From: a virus
Taxonomy: Duplodnaviria; Heunggongvirae; Uroviricota; Caudoviricetes
Virus record (IMG/VR): IMGVR_UViG_2639763151_000002
Reading direction: 5' to 3' (one strand)
Length of the DNA: 17,168 nt
Both the position numbers and the translations under genes were made by a program. Below are positions 1-6,821 of this stretch, piece after piece (positions within the stretch are counted from its first letter, which is position 1; each line of letters starts with the position of its first letter). The notes beneath the pieces were generated by a model, which was not told where the DNA came from, did not search any database, and worked only from the letters and a program-made list of their open reading frames with translations.

Positions 1-471
1 CTGGCGGATGCCTTACCGGAAAGTGCAGCCCGTAAGGCACTGAGATTACCGAAGCCTGTTGTGCCGTCTGTTACCCGGGAAAGTGACCTTGTGCCTTCGG
101 TTCCTGCCACCAGCATCATCCAGGATAAGGCGAAAAAGGTGCTGGCGCTGAAAGTGGATCCGGAGTCGCCGGAGTCTTTTATGTTACGCCCAAAACGTCG
201 CCGCTGGGTTAATGAAAAGTACACGCGCTGGGTTAAGACACAGCCGTGTGCATGTTGTGGAAAGCCCGCTGATGATCCCCACCACCTGATAGGTCACGGT
301 CAGGGTGGAATGGGAACAAAAGCGCATGACCTTTTTGTGTTGCCTTTGTGCAGAAAGCATCACGACGAGCTGCATGCGGATACCGTGGCATTTGAAGAGA
401 AGTATGGCTCCCAGCTGGAGCTGATATTTCGTTTTATCGATCGTGCGCTGGCAATTGGCGTGCTGGCCTGA
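1..471 (+). CDS. DUF968-like phage protein with C-terminal HNH-type Cys/His motif (YdfU-like); 5' end lies outside the window
   Basis: The reading frame is open from base 1 with no stop; the listed ORF at 61 is only an internal GTG. The C-terminus carries a CxxC...HH...H metal-binding/HNH-like pattern (CACCGKPADDPHHLIGHG...CRKHHDELH). In lambdoid prophages such a gene typically sits just upstream of Q. Confidence 0.6.
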   Translation: MADALPESAARKALRLPKPVVPSVTRESDLVPSVPATSIIQDKAKKVLALKVDPESPESFMLRPKRRRWVNEKYTRWVKTQPCACCGKPADDPHHLIGHGQGGMGTKAHDLFVLPLCRKHHDELHADTVAFEEKYGSQLELIFRFIDRALAIGVLA

Positions 472-488
472 TTTTGTGGAGAAAGTTG

Positions 489-851
489 ATGCGTGATATG
501 TATGAAGTATTGGACCGCTGGGGAGCATGGGCTGCAGCAGAAAATAGTGGTGTGGACTGGCAGCCGATAGCGGCTGGTTTCAAGGGACTTTTACCACACG
601 GTAAAAAGTCACGTCTCCAGTGTGATGATGATGAAGGCATCATGATAGACGGTTGTGTGGCTCGGTTGCGAAAGTATAAACCAGAGGAATATGAGCTAAT
701 CATAGCTCACTTTGTTATTGGTATCTCATTACGCACTATTGCCAAGAAGAGAAGATGTTCAGATGGCACAATTAGGAAGGAATTGCAGACTGCCATGGGG
801 TTTATCAGCGGTGTAATAATAACTATAAACCCCATTATGGTAGTTAATTAA
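489..851 (+). CDS. Q: late-gene antitermination protein Q (short, phage 21/82-type; not lambda Q family)
   Basis: Protein MRDMYEVLDRWGAWAA...IAAGFKGLL...CSDG...RKELQ matches the short Q family of E. coli prophages as recalled. ATG at 489 is preceded by GGAG at 478-481; the listed ORF start at 474 is a TTG. It lies directly upstream of the lysis cassette. Confidence 0.75.
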   Translation: MRDMYEVLDRWGAWAAAENSGVDWQPIAAGFKGLLPHGKKSRLQCDDDEGIMIDGCVARLRKYKPEEYELIIAHFVIGISLRTIAKKRRCSDGTIRKELQTAMGFISGVIITINPIMVVN

Positions 852-1419
852 TGTGAATCCTATCACCAAGATAGTATAGTCCAAAAAATGTTGAAACAAG
901 CATTTGCCATGTAAGGAATAAAAAGATAATGATATAGCACCAGTTTGCTATATCATTATTCAGTATGTTTATTAGTGGTGTGATAAAAGCGTTGAAAATC
1001 ACTATGCATATGCTGAGGGCAGTTAAAAATGAAAATAACATGCACAGAAATAATCTTCTGGTAAGTTTCTCTTGAGTGTCAACAATTCTACCATTTTCTT
1101 TTGTTCGTGTAATTTTAATAAAAGGAGTGCCATTAGTTCCTATCAGAGGGTAGTCAATTTGTTCTCTGTTGAAAGTGGCTATTGCTGCAAGAGCTGCTAT
1201 ATAAAAACCTGGCAGATTTGATACAAATCCAGATATAGACTTAATAAAGCCGCCATCTTTTAGTAGGTCTGATGTAGGTATTTTAAATAAATAAAAGTAA
1301 AAAAAAGAAATCACAGCAAGCCCGGCAGGTGCATAAAAATCGTATGCGCACTTACCACTAATTCCCTTAATGAAAAGGTAACCAAACGGTCTAAATAAAT
1401 GTGAAAATATACTAATCAT
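844..1419 (-). CDS. hypothetical integral membrane protein, 191 aa, about four predicted TM helices; second gene of the AT-rich cassette
   Basis: Uninterrupted ORF with GAGG 7 nt upstream of the ATG at 1419. Hydrophobic stretches AGLAVISFFYFYLF, GFYIAALAAIATF, LFLCMLFSFLTALSICIVIF and WCYIIIFLFLTWQMLVSTFFGLYYL. No lambda counterpart. Confidence 0.7.
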   Translation of the reverse strand: MISIFSHLFRPFGYLFIKGISGKCAYDFYAPAGLAVISFFYFYLFKIPTSDLLKDGGFIKSISGFVSNLPGFYIAALAAIATFNREQIDYPLIGTNGTPFIKITRTKENGRIVDTQEKLTRRLFLCMLFSFLTALSICIVIFNAFITPLINILNNDIANWCYIIIFLFLTWQMLVSTFFGLYYLGDRIHIN

Positions 1420-1426
1420 ATTAGCC

Positions 1427-2455
1427 TCACATGACCTCGATAATCTTATTCACAAACTCCATGTTAATACTATCATAAGAATCCTTTAAGCGCGAAGAAA
1501 AACCATTTATTACACTCTTTTTGATAAATGTTTTTTCCAGCCCATCCAGCCTTACATTTGAAGTTTGAAGGTCAACTTGTCTTGTGAATCCTGTCTCTGG
1601 CTCTTTGAATTTTATTTTTATTAAGTCATAACCTCCATTTTTATCTTCTTTAAAGAAGTTTGAGACAGATTTTATCCATCCAAGGACATTGTTGGGGCCA
1701 TGGTTTGGTACTAAGCGTAAAGTACTTTCTTTAGGAATAATAGCCGCGTTAACATCTGGCGCATTAATAGTTCTGTATTCATTCTTTACCAAAACGACAT
1801 CAGAAAGTCCTTCTTTATTTATTTTATTGAACAAATCTTCATCTAACTTTCCAGATATATCAAAGACTGGCTTGTATAATACTTTTATTTTTTTCTTTGT
1901 TAAACTTGACACTTCATTTGTTAAAGTGTTACATGAAAAGATATCTTCATTATCTTTGGCTACGTTAAAGAGAACTTTATTCAGGAAACCATTTATTTTT
2001 GCTGTGGAAACTCCTGGTATTGGCATAAAACTCATGTCATACGTTCGCATATTTCCGTCTAGAGAAATAATCATATGAGAAGAAACTTCGTAACCTTCAC
2101 CTTCCTCATGTTTTGGTGATATTTCGGTGCGAACATCTGTATTAATGTTTTTTAATACAGTAGTGCTTCCATTTTTATCTACAGCATTAATTAAAAGACC
2201 AAGATGGCTGGGTTTTTTATCGGCTCTGTTTGATAAGAATATTACATCTTGTAAAGTTAAAACTAAGTCTCCTTTTTCATAACTGTGCATCATTGCTTTA
2301 CAACGTACTATTTTAGAAGCAAGTTCACGCATTGTTGGTACCGGGCAAACACAGTTCGATCTGATGCTATCATCAATTTTCTGTGTACGGTATTGTGTAT
2401 CGATCGTAATAGTATGATGAGTTATTACTCTACTAAATGCGTCCAGTGTAGCCAT
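1427..2455 (-). CDS. hypothetical soluble protein, 342 aa, Lys/Asn-rich; first gene of the AT-rich cassette
   Basis: Long ORF in about 30% GC DNA whose stop lies 7 nt upstream of the membrane gene start, giving an operon arrangement. No Walker A, HNH or other motif was recognised by eye. Confidence 0.7.
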   Translation of the reverse strand: MATLDAFSRVITHHTITIDTQYRTQKIDDSIRSNCVCPVPTMRELASKIVRCKAMMHSYEKGDLVLTLQDVIFLSNRADKKPSHLGLLINAVDKNGSTTVLKNINTDVRTEISPKHEEGEGYEVSSHMIISLDGNMRTYDMSFMPIPGVSTAKINGFLNKVLFNVAKDNEDIFSCNTLTNEVSSLTKKKIKVLYKPVFDISGKLDEDLFNKINKEGLSDVVLVKNEYRTINAPDVNAAIIPKESTLRLVPNHGPNNVLGWIKSVSNFFKEDKNGGYDLIKIKFKEPETGFTRQVDLQTSNVRLDGLEKTFIKKSVINGFSSRLKDSYDSINMEFVNKIIEVM

Positions 2456-2568
2456 TTCAAAATATCCGCTTCTTTGCTGTTTTTATATGGAGAAAGTTTA
2501 CATAACCACTAACGCGTACGCAAAAACTATTGTATCGTGTTAAGAGTGGTTACTTCGCCACACAGCTT

Positions 2569-2598
2569 AAACCCGCCGTCGAGCGGGTTTTGTCGTTT
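2569..2598 (+). terminator. candidate intrinsic terminator (tR'-like) upstream of the holin gene
   Basis: Stem AAACCCGC / GCGGGTTT at 2569-2576 and 2583-2590 with loop CGTCGA, followed by TTTTGTCGTTTC. The position between the Q region and the holin is where the Q-antiterminated tR' is expected. Confidence 0.4.
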
Positions 2599-2742
2599 CT
2601 GGGGCTGGGGATTCGTTGGTCCTGGCCTATTCCGCAGTTATCCATTGGCTCGGCTTCTTTGACGTTTCCGCTTCTGATTTGCGGTACATGATGTTCCCTC
2701 AATTTGCACCTGCTGTATCAGCGAGGTGAGAGATAACTACAA

Positions 2743-3069
2743 ATGCCTCATAACCCAAATACCTGGCTGGAGTTGGTCCAGAGCTGGTGGCGTGGAGACA
2801 CACCACTGGGCGCAGTGATTATGTCGATTGTTATGGCTGGATTGCGCATTGCCTATTTTGGCGGTGGTGGTGGGTGGAAGCGAAAAACGCTCGAGATTTT
2901 GCTCTGTGGTGCTCTGACGCTGACTTTTGCATCCGCTCTTGAGTATGTCGGATGGCCTAAATCTCTTTCTGTTGCCATTGGTGGCGGTGTTGGGCTGATT
3001 GGTGTCGATGCAATTCGTGGGGTTGCAATGCGAGTAATCGGTAACAAATTTGGTAGCTCGAAGGAGTAA
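2743..3069 (+). CDS. holin (class I-like, three predicted TM helices); not lambda S family
   Basis: 108-aa protein with three hydrophobic segments and a charged C-terminus, ending 3 nt before the endolysin R start. SD GAGGTGAGAG precedes the ATG. Confidence 0.7.
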   Translation: MPHNPNTWLELVQSWWRGDTPLGAVIMSIVMAGLRIAYFGGGGGWKRKTLEILLCGALTLTFASALEYVGWPKSLSVAIGGGVGLIGVDAIRGVAMRVIGNKFGSSKE

Positions 3070-3072
3070 TTT

Positions 3073-3549
3073 ATGCAGGCACTAAATTCCCAGCGTAAAG
3101 CTTTCCTCGATATGGTGGCATGGTCAGAAGGAACGGATAACGGACGGCAGAAAACCAGAAATCATGGTTATGACGTCATTGTAGGCGGAGAGCTATTTAC
3201 TGATTACTCCGATCATCCTCGCAAACTTGTCACACTAAACCCAAAACTAAAATCAACAGCCGCCGGACGTTATCAGCTTCTTTCACGCTGGTGGGATGCT
3301 TATCGTAAGCAGCTTGCTCTGAAAGACTTCTCTCCGAAAAGCCAGGACGCTGTGGCATTGCAGCAGATTAAGGAGCGTGGCGCTTTACCGATGATTGATC
3401 GCGGTGATATTCGTCAGGCAATTGACCGTTGCAGCAATATCTGGGCTTCACTGCCGGGCGCTGGTTATGGTCAGTTCGAGCATAAGGCTGACAGCCTGAT
3501 TGCAAAATTCAAAGAAGCAGGCGGAACGGTCAGAGAGATTGAGGTATGA
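3073..3549 (+). CDS. R: endolysin R (lytic transglycosylase)
   Basis: 158 aa, near-identical to lambda R as recalled ([56 protein letters not shown]...). Confidence 0.95.
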
Positions 3550-4007
3550 GCAGAGTAACCGCGATTATCTCCGCTCTGGTTATCTGCATCATCGTCTGCT
3601 TGTCATGGGCTGTTAATCATTACCGCGATAACGCCATTACCTACAAAGCCCAGCGCGACAAAAATGCCAGAGAACTGAAGCTGGCGAACTCGACAATTAC
3701 TGACATGCAGGTGCGCCAGCGTGATGTTGCTGCGCTCGATGCAAAATACACGAAGGAGTTAGCTGATGCGAAAGCTGAAAATGATGCTCTGCGTGATGAT
3801 GTTGCCGCTGGTCGTCGTCGGTTGCACATCAAAGCAGTCTGTCAGTCAGTGCGTGAAGCCACCACCGCCTCCGGCATGGATAATGCAGCCTCCCCCCGAC
3901 TGGCAGACACCGCTGAACGGGATTATTTCACCCTCAGAGAGAGGCTGATCACTATGCAAAAACAACTGGAAGGAACCCAGAAGTATATTAATGAGCAGTG
4001 CAGATAG
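3546..4007 (+). CDS. Rz: Rz inner-membrane spanin (i-spanin)
   Basis: 153 aa, near-identical to lambda Rz as recalled; the ATGA start/stop overlaps the end of R. Confidence 0.95.
3766..3948 (+). CDS. Rz1: Rz1 outer-membrane lipoprotein spanin (o-spanin), embedded in Rz in the +1 frame
   Basis: 60 aa with lipobox LVVVGC and proline-rich stretch [15 protein letters not shown], matching lambda Rz1 as recalled. Confidence 0.9.
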
Positions 4008-4038
4008 AGCTGCCCATATCGATGGGCAACTCATGCAA

Positions 4039-4332
4039 TTATTGTGAGCAATACACACGCGCTTCCAGTGGAGTATAAATGCCTAAAGTAATAAAACCGA
4101 GAAATCCATTTACGAATGTTTGCTGGGTTTCTGTTTTAACAACATTTTCTGCGCCGCCACAAATTTTGGCTGCATCGACAGTTTTCTTCTGCCCAATTCC
4201 AGAGACGAAGAAATGGTGGGTGATGGTTTCCTTTGGTGTTACTGCTGCCGGTTTGTTTTGAACAGTAAACGTCTGTTGGGCACATCCTGTAATAAGCAGG
4301 GCCAGCGCAGTAGCGAGTAGCATTTTTTTCAT
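4039..4332 (-). CDS. bor: Bor lipoprotein (serum-resistance moron)
   Basis: 97 aa MKKMLLATALALLITGCAQQTFTVQNKPAAV..., essentially identical to lambda Bor as recalled. Confidence 0.95.
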   Translation of the reverse strand: MKKMLLATALALLITGCAQQTFTVQNKPAAVTPKETITHHFFVSGIGQKKTVDAAKICGGAENVVKTETQQTFVNGFLGFITLGIYTPLEARVYCSQ

Positions 4333-4623
4333 GGTGTTATTCCCGATGCTTTTTAAAGTTCGCAGAATCGTATGTGTAGAAAATTAAACAAACCCTAAAC
4401 AATGAGTTGAAATCTCATATTGTTAATATTTATTAATGTATGTCAGATGCGAAGGATCGTCACTGTATTCCCGGATTAACTATGTCCGCAGCCCTGACAG
4501 GGAAACTCCTCTGCGGGAGTGTCCGGGAATAATTAATAACGATGCACACAGGGTTTAGCGCTTACACGTATTGCATTATGCCAACGCCCCGGTGCTGACA
4601 CGGAAGAAACCGGACGTTATGAT

Positions 4624-5157
4624 TTAGCGTGGAAAGATTTGTGTAGTGTTCTGAATGCTCTCAGTAAATAGTAATGAATTATCAAAGGCATAGTAATATC
4701 TTTTATGTTCGTGGATATTTGTAACCCATCGGAAAACTCCTGCTTTAGCAAGATTTTCCCTGTATTGCTGAAATGTGATTTCTCTTGATTTCAACCTATC
4801 ATAGGACGTTTCTATAAGATGCGTATTTCTTGAGAATTTAACATTTACAACCTTTTTAAGTCCTTTTATTAACACAGTGTTATCGTTTTCTAACACAATG
4901 TGAATATTATCTGTGGCTAGATAGTAAATATAATGTGAGACATTGTGACGTTTTAGTTCAGAATAAAACAATTCACAGTTTAAATCTTTTCGCACTTGAT
5001 CGAATATTTCTTTAAAAATGGCAACCTGAGCCATTGGTAAAACCTTCCATGTGATACGAGGGCGCGTAGTTTGCATTATCGTTTTTATCGTTTCAATCTG
5101 GTCTGACCTCTTTGTGTTTTGTTGATGATTTATGTCAAATATTAGGAATGTTTTCAA
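4624..5157 (-). CDS. hypothetical protein, homolog of lambda right-end ORF lambdap78 (annotated elsewhere as putative envelope protein)
   Basis: 177-aa ORF in AT-rich DNA at the same distance from cosN as lambdap78, as recalled. Confidence 0.65.
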
Positions 5158-5319
5158 TTAATAGTATTGGTTGCGTAACAAAGTGCGGTCCTGCTGGCAT
5201 TCTGGAGGGAAATACAACCGACAGATGTATGTAAGGCCAACGTGCTCAAATCTTCATACAGAAAGATTTGAAGTAATATTTTAACCTCTAGATGAAGAGC
5301 AAGCGCATGGAGCGACAAA

Positions 5320-5526
5320 ATGAATAAAGAACAATCTGCTGATGATCCCTCCGTGGATCTGATTCGTGTAAAAAATATGCTTAATAGCACCATTTCTATG
5401 AGTTACCCTGATGTTGTAATTGCATGTATAGAACATAAGGTGTCTCTGGAAGCATTCAGGGCAATTGAGGCAGCGTTGGTGAAGCACGATAATAATATGA
5501 AGGATTATTCCCTGGTGGTTGACTGA
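5320..5526 (+). CDS. small hypothetical protein, homolog of lambda lambdap79 / YbcW-like
   Basis: 68-aa [36 protein letters not shown]... at the lambdap79 position relative to cosN. Confidence 0.6.
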
Positions 5527-5690
5527 TCACCATAACTGCTAATCATTCAAACTACTTAACCTGTGACAGAGCCAACACGCAGTCTGTCACTGTCAGGAAA
5601 GTGGTAAAACTGCAACTCAATTACTGCAATGCCCTCGTAATTAAGTGAATTTACAATATCGTCCTGTTCGGAGGGAAGAACGCGGGATGT

Positions 5691-5885
5691 TCATTCTTCA
5701 TCACTTTTAATTGATGTATATGCTCTCTTTTCTGACGTTAGCCTCCGACGGCAGGCTTCAATGACCCAGGCTGAGAAATTTCCGGACCCTTTTTGATCAA
5801 GAGCGATGTTAATTTGTTCAATCATTTGGTTAGGAAAGCGGATGTTGCGGGTTGTTGTTCTGCGGGTTCTGTTCTTCGTTGACAT
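5691..5885 (-). CDS. small basic hypothetical protein (YlcI/DUF3950-like), 64 aa
   Basis: Intact ORF MSTKNRTRRTTTRNIRFPNQMIEQINIALDQKGSGNFSAWVIEACRRRL about 200 bp upstream of cos; it resembles small prophage proteins at this position. No clear SD was examined. Confidence 0.4.
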   Translation of the reverse strand: MSTKNRTRRTTTRNIRFPNQMIEQINIALDQKGSGNFSAWVIEACRRRLTSEKRAYTSIKSDEE

Positions 5886-6084
5886 GAGGTTGCCCCGTAT
5901 TCAGTGTCGCTGATTTGTATTGTCTGAAGTTGTTTTTACGTTAAGTTGATGCGGATCAATTAATACGATACCTGCGTCATAATTGATTATTTGACGTGGT
6001 TTGATGGCGTAGATGCACGTTGTGACATGTAGATGATAATTATTATCATTTTGCGGGTCCTTTCCGGCGATCCGACAGGTTACG

Positions 6085-6096
6085 GGGCGGCGACCT
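6085..6096 (+). other. cosN, the 12-nt cohesive-end sequence GGGCGGCGACCT (terminase nicking site)
   Basis: Exact lambda cohesive-end sequence, flanked by lambda-like GACAGGTTACG upstream and CGCGG.TTTTC.CTATTTATGAAAATTTT downstream. Confidence 0.85.
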
Positions 6097-6272
6097 CGCG
6101 GTTTTTCACTATTTATGAAAATTTTTCAGGGAAAATCGTGTCGGTACTTCTCGAATATAACTTTTTGTTTTTTTTTATATTGCATCCGTAAAGGTCCGAC
6201 ATGAAAGTGTCCGAAAATGCCTTTTTCTGGCGTTTTCATGTCGGGCCTTGTATTTGATAATGGGTTGTTTTC
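6097..6272 (+). promoter_or_regulatory. cosB-like terminase small-subunit binding region between cosN and Nu1
   Basis: The cosN-proximal block resembles lambda, then diverges. Inverted repeat GGTCCGACATGAAA (6193-6206) / TTTCATGTCGGGCC (6234-6247) plus a half-repeat GTCCGAAAATG (6209-6219), consistent with R-type Nu1 sites. Confidence 0.55.
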
Positions 6273-6821
6273 ATGAAGGTTAATAAAAAGAGGCTTGCCG
6301 AAATTTTCAACGTGGACCCGCGGACGATTGAACGCTGGCAGTCTCAGGGACTCCCTTGCGCCTCCAAAGGTAGTAAGGGCATTGAATCTGTATTTGATAC
6401 TGCCATGGCAATTCAGTGGTATGCGCAGAGGGAAACTGATATCGAAAACGAAAAGCTCCGCAAAGAACTGGACGATTTGCGTGCGGCAGCGGAGTCAGAT
6501 TTACAACCCGGCACCATTGACTATGAACGCTACCGGCTCACAAAAGCGCAGGCAGATGCGCAGGAACTGAAAAATGCCCGTGAAGACGGAGTAGTGCTGG
6601 AAACTGAACTGTTTACCTTCATTCTGCAACGTGTGGCACAGGAGATTTCGGGGATACTTGTGCGTGTGCCGTTGACATTACAGCGTAAATATCCGGACAT
6701 TTCACCATCACACCTTGATGTGGTGAAAACTGAAATCGCGAAAGCCTCCAATGTTGCAGCTAAGGCCGGTGAAAACGTGGGCGGGTGGATCGATGATTTC
6801 AGACGCGCAGAAGGCAGCTAA
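6273..6821 (+). CDS. Nu1: terminase small subunit Nu1
   Basis: 182 aa [12 protein letters not shown]...[11 protein letters not shown], aligning with lambda Nu1 (MEVNKKQLADIF...) but diverged in the N-terminal DNA-binding part. Confidence 0.9.

Follow-up and report, generated by a model that had tools for sequence, protein, structure and literature searches.

A conserved block between a candidate defence cassette and the lysis genes as the probable displaced, bidirectional control module of a short Q21-family antiterminator in Escherichia coli prophages

The DNA analyzed here, referred to as the window, is a stretch of 17,168 nucleotides from a virus of the Caudoviricetes (IMG/VR record IMGVR_UViG_2639763151_000002); it belongs to a lambdoid prophage and its region 400-3100 is 100% identical to E. 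coli 04-00955. The subject of this work is the 287-bp gap (2456-2742) between gene A of a two-gene reversed cassette and the holin gene, and specifically a conserved block of about 100 bp, placed just upstream of the lysis genes, that very probably comprises the late promoter, the target of the antiterminator Q and the terminator. The explanation that we consider probable is that positions 2495-2598 form a small control module that works in both directions and has the Q gene at 489-851 as its partner. In the rightward direction, a sigma-70 promoter, with TATCGT as the -10 hexamer and a weak -35 (CTAACG or TAACGC), would start transcription at G2544 or A2545, and without Q the transcript would end after about 50 nt at the terminator (2569-2598). 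Q would recognize CTAACGCGTACGCAAAAA, at a site between -35 and -10 like those of phage 21 and lambda, and the Q-modified RNA polymerase would pass this terminator (tR') and continue into the genes for holin, endolysin and Rz and the late genes beyond them. In the leftward direction, a -35 element TTGCGT (2523-2518) and a -10 element TAAACT (2500-2495), the latter at the cargo junction, would drive the PDC-M53 cassette in the lysogen. Since the late start would be downstream of the cassette, late transcription would never run antisense through it, as the original prediction for this region had proposed. Both promoters are presumed to be active in this strain.

The first evidence in favor of this explanation is the tie between the block and one type of Q. 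The block (approximately 2495-2598) occurs in thousands of E. coli prophages, always together with the short Q type of Pfam family PF06530 that is found in the window. Positions 2498-2742 are 96.7% identical to the DNA upstream of S in the Shigella phage SfII, and positions 2499-2591 only are 94.6% identical to a segment of the Stx2a phages 1447 and WGPS2. In Stx2a_1447 the block sits behind a two-gene reversed cargo related to that of the window and is followed not by a holin gene but by a methylase gene, three tRNA genes (ileZ-argN-argO) and stx2AB (L001 3501-3592 onward). A diverged copy is present in K-12 DLP12, PA-2 and Lambda_4C10, between a reversed porin gene and the lysis genes. SfII, the Stx2a phages, DLP12, PA-2 and Lambda_4C10 thus share the same order, with a short PF06530 Q upstream, a reversed cargo in between and then the block, and the window carries all three marks of the DLP12 / PA-2 / SfII-type family, namely TAnnnT, GTTAAGAGTGGTTACTTCGYCACACAGCTT and the CCCGCC hairpin. 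A full-text literature search for the block sequence retrieved no paper.

This association was followed in 80 viral contigs encoding close relatives of the window Q. In about 70 of them, the block core follows Q at distances of 655-3781 bp and is never adjacent to it. The intervening cargo, compared by means of one representative for each of about 20 types, is AT-rich (30-39% G+C), and the genes adjoining the block invariably have minus-strand orientation. The sequence that directly follows the Q stop is unrelated from one cargo type to the next and in most cases is a hairpin that closes the cargo; over at least 20 cargo insertions, no DNA other than the block from about 2499 to 2568 accompanies this Q type. 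In the window, the distance from the Q stop (851) to the block amounts to about 1.64 kb, in agreement with the displacement of about 1.6 kb initially estimated. The original prediction had also located the late promoter (PR') and the Q site at about 2460-2568, downstream of the cassette: the placement holds, and the range can be narrowed to about 2495-2568. A late start within 851-900, which would have told against that prediction, finds no place here, because nothing is conserved after the Q stop and the 8-nt overlap between Q and cassette gene B leaves no space for a promoter.

The left half of the block, in addition, follows the Q type. Of the window-type Q loci with the block core in the flank, 77 of 77 carry the GCGTACGC version, and 78 of the 79 QuuD loci carry the ACGTACGT version, the exception being an IS1 insertion. 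In locus L124, an IS1 end replaces everything to the left of AAAATTGGTTATGCT, with the loss of the -35 and the palindrome, which makes this locus a natural knock-out. A swap is provided by SfV, which shares the holin family but encodes a lambda-family Q (PF03589). In place of the left half of the block, which is missing, SfV carries a lambda-like pR' beside Q (TTGCAT ... GATAAG), followed by AACGATGGG as in lambda. Another locus (L008) combines the cargo and the left half found in the window with a Stx2a-type right side; the mosaic joint falls at about 2568/2569, and by comparison of L008 with the window the joint with the late-gene modules is at the terminator or past it. The swap in SfV indicates that the approximately 70 bp preceding the hairpin are the Q-specific part.

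The right end of the block is a hairpin of the tR' type. Its arms, AAACCCGC and GCGGGTTT, enclose the loop CGTCGA and are followed by the tail TTTTGTCGTTTCT (position 2590, then TGTCGTTTCT), so that the U-tract hairpin lies on the + strand upstream of the holin exactly where it had first been noticed. With eight pairs, five of them G-C, it ranks first among the terminator-like sites in 400-3200, seven of which were observed compared with 2.0 +/- 1.6 in shuffled sequences; folded alone, it yields -12 kcal/mol (z = -2.7). It begins about 25 nt past the proposed late start and ends 145 nt before the holin ATG. Of 36 unique homologous variants, nearly all keep the stem and the T tract, while the loop takes at least seven different sequences, the exceptions being one copy split by an insertion (L055, a natural terminator knock-out) and the PA-2 group, with one stem mismatch. 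In that group (L005 and about 24 IMG/VR loci, e.g., L090 and L104), the 3' arm reads GCTGG, not GCGGG, the whole-RNA fold is -8.4 versus -13.9 kcal/mol, and tR' may therefore be leakier. An Rfam search of 1-6500 at E <= 1 returned nothing relevant. In SfV, a hairpin of the same family (AACCCGCCGCTGAGCGGG and a T run; full form AACCCGCCGCTGAGCGGGTTTTTTTGTGCC) terminates after the lambda-like pR' beside the lambda-family Q, and variants are also found in mEp460 and others. The situation in SfV indicates that the hairpin marks a bona fide tR' position common to different Q systems, and the phage 21 terminator likewise lies within about 50 nt of the late start; both facts bear out the early assignment of the hairpin as tR'.

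The promoter itself is less apparent. A simple consensus scan of 2456-2742 found no promoter with at least 9 of 12 matches, just as no -35/-10 pair had been discerned by eye with any confidence, and the hexamers proposed here derive from comparative conservation and from published 5'-end maps of homologues. In the -10 element, the inner bases (2535-2537) vary over 20 cargo classes (TATCGT, TAATCT, TATTGT, TACTCT, TAATGT) between the invariant T, A and T, and the counterpart reads TATGCT in DLP12 and TATTCT in M90T. An invariant TAnnnT with varying inner bases is the signature of a -10 hexamer. The window-type -35 is poor, being either CTAACG at 18 bp or TAACGC at 17 bp, while the DLP12-type promoter, TTTACG-16-TATGCT or TATTCT, is found in three cargo contexts. 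From the late start to the hairpin, a short terminated RNA (about 50 nt, as in phage 21) is predicted, with a length of 48-55 nt and two hairpins.

Further information comes from transcription start maps. The Cappable-seq data for K-12 (PMC4782308 supplement) place a start on the + strand at 576452 (U00096.2) but contain no entry at 57643x-57644x. The former falls on the GTTAA[G/A]G of the DLP12 block, 6-7 nt past TATGCT, which corresponds to G2544/A2545 in the window, the position being thus transferred by homology. For this assignment, the offset between genome versions was taken to be 776-777 bp, from the lacZ and essD coordinates. The start table of Shigella M90T, which gives the '100 bp upstream of start' (PMC7132871), contributed a third context of the DLP12-type block, in which all late-direction 5' ends lie past the hexamer, at the equivalents of window 2549, 2553 and 2566. 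These published 5' ends favor TATCGT as a -10 element over TATCGT as a pause element. The Term-seq tables of PMC7815308, ROSE and the EDL933 start-site tables, searched by sequence, contained no matching entry.

Other starts have been recorded in or near homologous blocks. The M90T table includes a 'primary' start on the opposite strand inside the block, at chromosome position 437988 (+), equivalent to window 2530 on the minus strand and distinct from the predicted cassette start near 2488. In MG1655, a far stronger + strand start (Cappable-seq score 90) is found at 576857-576858, in the porin-specific DNA near the nmpC start codon; the DLP12 block lies about 370 nt downstream of it, and transcripts from this start would reach the block terminator. 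Reporter primers used elsewhere put a '+1' about 350 bp upstream of the block, also in porin-specific DNA (PMC7918800) and near this strong start. The DLP12 lysis operon has been reported to be under the control of a Q-type antiterminator of the prophage (PMC7918800, citing Rueggeberg 2013).

The geometry of phage 21 offers a different, and in our judgment improbable, arrangement of the same elements. The -35 would be TTTACA (2497-2502), the -10 would lie at about 2520-2526 ((G)CAAAAA) and transcription would start near G2532, so that TATCGT would fall at +2 to +7 as a sigma-dependent pause element (SDPE), GCGTACGC, 11 bp upstream, would be the downstream Q subsite, and the RNA would measure about 64 nt. 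The spacing speaks for it, since -35 and pause element, measured between their first bases, are 36 bp apart in both phage 21 (1939 to 1975) and the window, and the 11 bp from palindrome to TAnnnT are close to the 12 bp between the downstream Q-binding element (QBEd) and the SDPE of phage 21; this geometry would also supply the pause element missing from the preferred explanation. However, the -10 that it needs (GCAAAA or CAAAAA) has no T at -7 and, in one register, no A at -11. TTTACA was rejected as a rightward -35: it is not conserved, no G is found at its third position in any of the 20 classes, and the conservation of A2495, T2499 and A2500 is better explained by the minus-strand -10 of the cassette promoter. 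Moreover, the Cappable-seq map shows no start at the place required and one 6-7 nt past the hexamer, M90T has none there either, and the 9-bp insertion in DLP12-type blocks destroys the spacing, with TTTACG-16-TATGCT constituting a normal promoter there.

Under the preferred explanation, with TATCGT as the -10 element, the interval upstream of it is, by analogy with lambda and phage 21, the expected place for the Q site. The segment 2509-2526 is near-totally invariant over the 20 cargo classes, and it occupies the interval between -35 and -10 where the Q-binding element (QBE) of phage 21 sits. In blocks associated with QuuD, the 8-bp palindrome GCGTACGC is replaced by ACGTACGT within a 14-bp palindrome, TTTACGTACGTAAA. 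The QuuD protein and the window Q are 47% identical, and their recognition helices differ at four positions (DGTIRKELQTA versus DGYIGKRLQKA). By analogy with phage 21, these observations suggest, although they do not prove, that Q most likely recognizes CTAACGCGTACGCAAAAA.

The divergent promoter that had been suspected in the same region for the cassette is supported by comparison of the cargo junctions. Its putative -35, TTGCGT, is invariant in all 20 cargo classes, and a minus-strand TAnnnT follows 17 +/- 1 bp past it in 18 of the 20 otherwise unrelated junctions (exactly 17 bp in 14), compared with a chance expectation of about 0.12 per class, our own rough estimate for about 35% A and 35% T. 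The sequence is TAAACT in the window and, for example, TATATT, TACAAT, TAGAAT or TATAAT elsewhere. A minus-strand -10 accounts for the semi-conservation of A2495, T2499 and A2500, the only semi-conserved bases to the left of the block. The first ATG of the cargo usually lies 28-44 nt past this -10; in the window, it is found 39 nt past, and the start predicted at about 2488 precedes it by 33 nt. The predicted leftward (about 2488) and rightward (2544/2545) starts would thus be about 56 bp apart, back to back, with adjacent -35 regions.

These elements can be joined in a broader reading, which we regard as rather unlikely, where the block is a promoter-equipped docking slot and at the same time a two-way switch. 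Unrelated defence cassettes would be swapped in, each of them joined some 30-40 nt behind a leftward promoter that the block itself supplies, with the -35 inside the Q-binding palindrome. In the lysogen, this promoter would be used and defence would be on, while the rightward promoter would yield only the RNA of about 50 nt. Q would bind the shared centre and load, in place of sigma region 4, on a polymerase that sigma region 2 holds at TATCGT, so that loading would occur at the promoter itself and not at a separate downstream pause site; simultaneously it would block the cassette promoter, so that the defence of the prophage would be turned off as the lytic cycle begins.

Several observations weigh against the assignment of the block as the late promoter and Q target. 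The late promoter is weak by consensus, with 7 of 12 matches and no TTG in the -35. All the 5'-end maps come from homologous blocks in other strains, the K-12 start at 576452 is weak (Cappable-seq score 1.7; PMC4782308) and belongs to a DLP12-type block with a better -35 (TTTACG), and the M90T table is noisy. All 80 QuuD loci share one porin cargo, so their Q-block linkage is not independent, and they are unusable for delimiting the DLP12-type block. The candidate Q site is palindromic and does not consist of two 8-bp direct repeats as in phage 21; positions 2509-2526 contain no repeats resembling ATTGAGCA or AATGAGCA, but only a 4-nt ACGC repeat with a 6-bp period. The palindrome also overlaps the -35 of the cassette promoter, which may itself be part of the cause of its conservation. 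Inspection of the sequence from +1 to +18, counted from 2544/2545, reveals no nAnnnT, so that the sigma-dependent pause element, which in lambda, 21 and 82 is among the defining features of Q loading, is unrecognizable. Finally, no compensatory change was found in the terminator or in the small hairpin of the initial transcript, which are 97% paired over the 36 variants, and covariation thus gives the hairpin no independent support.

It might then be argued that the block is not the target of Q at all, but a terminator or insulator plus a cassette promoter, a linker for module exchange, or a small-RNA gene, the late genes being switched on elsewhere or by Q acting on polymerase from upstream promoters. 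This we hold to be quite improbable. The block has mosaic joints on either side, conservation of the 30 bp at 2539-2568 exceeds what a promoter or a pause signal is known to require, DLP12 has the much stronger start described above, in a region to which RpoE-dependent control has been ascribed (PMC7918800), and Q82 can load on complexes with long RNA (PMC9388147). A sequence-specific Q, however, needs a DNA site that travels with it, for which the block is the only candidate, as nothing beside Q or in the variable cargo is common to the classes. Furthermore, the left half of the block changes with the Q type whereas a lambda-Q phage has the same terminator half. A TAnnnT that never varies and is followed by a mapped start points to a promoter, and the window has no counterpart of the cargo-specific DNA in which the upstream DLP12 start is located.

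The conservation of the start region and initial transcribed region (2539-2568) deserves separate mention. It is almost invariant in the 36 variants, and a single nucleotide differs between window-type and DLP12-type blocks even though these serve Q proteins that are only 47% identical, a degree of identity that no known requirement explains. The segment may hold Q-utilization (qut) or pause signals, or it may simply be the body of the short RNA. That both the Q and the pause signals lie downstream of the start, within these 30 bp (for example, with the GTTA repeats of 10-bp period, GTTAAGAGTG / GTTACTTCGC, as the Q site and CAGCTT at 2563-2568, by inspection the only nAnnnT in the transcribed part, as the pause element), would explain this extreme conservation in both block types, but it is very improbable, given that the recognition helices differ at four positions while the DNA there is identical and it is the upstream element that differs by type, and that a pause induced by CAGCTT would land inside the terminator hairpin. 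An analogy with phage 82 (a GCC 'discriminator' with a U ten bases later) was dropped because its Q is of another family (PF06323); neither the AAA start nor the A/T-rich +18 to +25 of that phage fits the block. In the PA-2 record J02580 (1986), a CRP-binding site is annotated at L005 1531-1551, equivalent to window 2545-2565; the half-site reads TGTGA on the minus strand in PA-2, and TGTGG in the window type.

Table 1. Position of the proposed control elements and neighbouring genes in the window.
Feature	Position	Strand	Description
DUF968 gene	61-471		Upstream of Q
Antiterminator Q	489-851	+	120 aa from ATG 489; listed open reading frame begins at TTG 474
Cassette gene B	844-1419	-	191 aa, PDC-M53B; stop overlaps the end of Q
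Cassette gene A	1427-2455	-	342 aa, PDC-M53A; first cassette gene, ATG 2455
Predicted cassette promoter, -10	2495-2500	-	TAAACT; predicted start near 2488
Candidate Q-binding element, weak -35 region	2509-2526	+	Invariant CTAACGCGTACGCAAAAA with 8-bp palindrome GCGTACGC (2514-2521)
Predicted cassette promoter, -35	2518-2523	-	TTGCGT, inside the invariant block centre
Proposed late -10	2533-2538	+	TATCGT; T2533, A2534 and T2538 invariant
Start region and initial transcribed region	2539-2568	+	Small hairpin GUGGU/GCCAC (2546-2561)
Predicted late start	2544-2545	+	G2544 or A2545, by homology
tR'-type intrinsic terminator	2569-2598	+	Stem 2569-2576 / 2583-2590, T-rich tail to about 2598
Lysis-operon leader	2599-2742	+	
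Holin	2743-3069	+	PF05106, ATG at 2743
Endolysin	3073-3549	+	
Rz	3546-4007	+	PF03245
bor			After Rz in gene order

The features discussed and their neighbours are collected in Table 1. By its profile match, the antiterminator is a short protein of the Q21 family: it matches PF06530 (E = 2.8e-45, 113 of 118 profile positions covered), the family of Q21 (PMC9388147), and the Q21 protein of phage 21 matches the same model. Its similarity to the Q21 structures 6P18/6JNX is weak (E = 0.0045), and its 120 residues include neither of the loop insertions of the Q21 helix-turn[loop]-helix (HT[loop]H) motif. Relatives begin with MRDMYEV, which supports ATG 489 as the start codon. Q length varies between about 103 and 125 residues, and the C-terminal tail (encoded by window 820-851) varies with the cargo class; together with the convergent overlap of the Q and gene B reading frames, this indicates that the exchange of cargo rewrites the end of Q. 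On the other side of the block, the leader shares 96.7% identity with the sequence preceding S in SfII and about 75% with that in DLP12 and PA-2, and a terminator scan found no additional terminator-like site in it. The lysis genes (2743-4007) have counterparts annotated as S, R and Rz in SfII.

As to the cassette, no Pfam domain was found in either of its genes, while PADLOC identified gene A as PDC-M53A (E = 1.3e-31) and gene B as PDC-M53B (E = 1.7e-54, full length), so that these adjacent matches on the same strand designate a PDC-M53 candidate defence system. The gap between Q and the block (window 852-2494; loci L001, L003 and L019-L066) is a hotspot that has received at least 20 unrelated AT-rich cargo insertions, many of which are known or candidate defence systems. 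Among its other occupants, PADLOC recognized Kiwa KwaB, PDC-S33, PDC-S60 and PDC-M53 again; there are also NsnA/PD-T4-2_A beside a type II methyltransferase, porins, and a weakly LmuA/RTasMBL-like protein (best E = 1.6e-11), and about half of the cargo proteins tested match nothing in PADLOC. No account of a defence hotspot located between Q and the lysis genes was found in the literature searched, although one may exist. Within gene B, about 75 nt past the Q stop, a perfect 15-bp A/T-rich hairpin (GATAATGATATAGCA...TGCTATATCATTATT, window 925-960) scores as terminator-like on both strands and might keep early rightward transcripts from extending antisense through more of the cassette.

The closest known system by Q family is that of phage 21 (OL657228; structures 6P18, 6P19 and 6P1A), whose Q belongs to PF06530 like that of the window. 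Its module comprises the -35 TTGACA, an upstream element (QBEu) ATTGAGCA, the downstream element (QBEd) AATGAGCA, the -10 AACACT and the SDPE TAAGCT at +2; it spans 85 bp and gives a transcript of about 46-50 nt, which is the scale of the window block. In both cases a Q site (a candidate here) lies upstream of the -10, an intrinsic terminator is found about 50 nt from the start and the late genes come next. In contrast, Q21 has 162 residues versus 120, the two proteins are about 24% identical and both HT[loop]H loop insertions are found only in Q21. The -35 of PR'21 begins 7 bp past the Q21 stop, whereas 1.64 kb of reversed cargo intervene in the window, where moreover a palindrome replaces the direct repeats, no pause element is recognizable at +2 to +7, and a divergent promoter, a feature of the window and not of phage 21, would share the block centre. 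With respect to the cassette as defined for phage 21, the window therefore shares the Q family and the early terminator, but neither the adjacency to Q nor the direct-repeat QBE.

The order in DLP12 (quuD - nmpC/lc - essD), PA-2 and Lambda_4C10 is that of the window, with a short PF06530 Q, a reversed cargo, a homologous block and the lysis genes. Their blocks are about 75-90% identical to that of the window, with the start region, initial transcribed region and terminator nearly identical; the upstream half differs in DLP12, which has TTTACGTACGTAAA, the -10 TATGCT and a good -35. In DLP12 the slot holds a porin gene together with an upstream region of 570 bp, whereas in the window the defence cassette abuts the block. 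Lambda and SfV follow the same logic, in which a promoter is followed by an early terminator that polymerase passes toward S, R and Rz when Q acts, but with a Q of family PF03589 and a promoter beside Q; the pause element AACGATGGG, plain in SfV, is absent from the window. The terminated late RNA of lambda is 194 nt long. The short terminated PR' transcript of Stx phages, StxS, is an Hfq-dependent small RNA of 258 nt that is processed to 74 nt (PMC7547250). Both StxS and the RNA predicted here are promoter-proximal terminated late transcripts, expected in our case in the lysogen, and StxS arises from a different PR'; a copy of the block is found upstream of stx2 in Stx2a_1447 and WGPS2.

Taken as a whole, the block is a displaced, bidirectional variant of the textbook Q system that is common to DLP12, PA-2, SfII and some Stx phages. 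The late-gene switch of a very common class of E. coli prophages (DLP12, SfII and a subset of Stx2a phages) would therefore lie in this block and not beside Q, and for the Stx2a subset the block would be the promoter-terminator unit from which stx2 is read. A Q protein devoid of the DNA-binding loops of Q21, together with a palindromic candidate site and no visible pause element, provides a natural test of the generality of Q21 loading. The most interesting aspect is perhaps the combination of a built-in leftward promoter with a cargo slot, the same variant being already present in K-12: the cargo placed between Q and the lysis genes would escape antisense late transcription while having a conserved promoter of its own, and the slot would be a convenient place to seek new defence systems.

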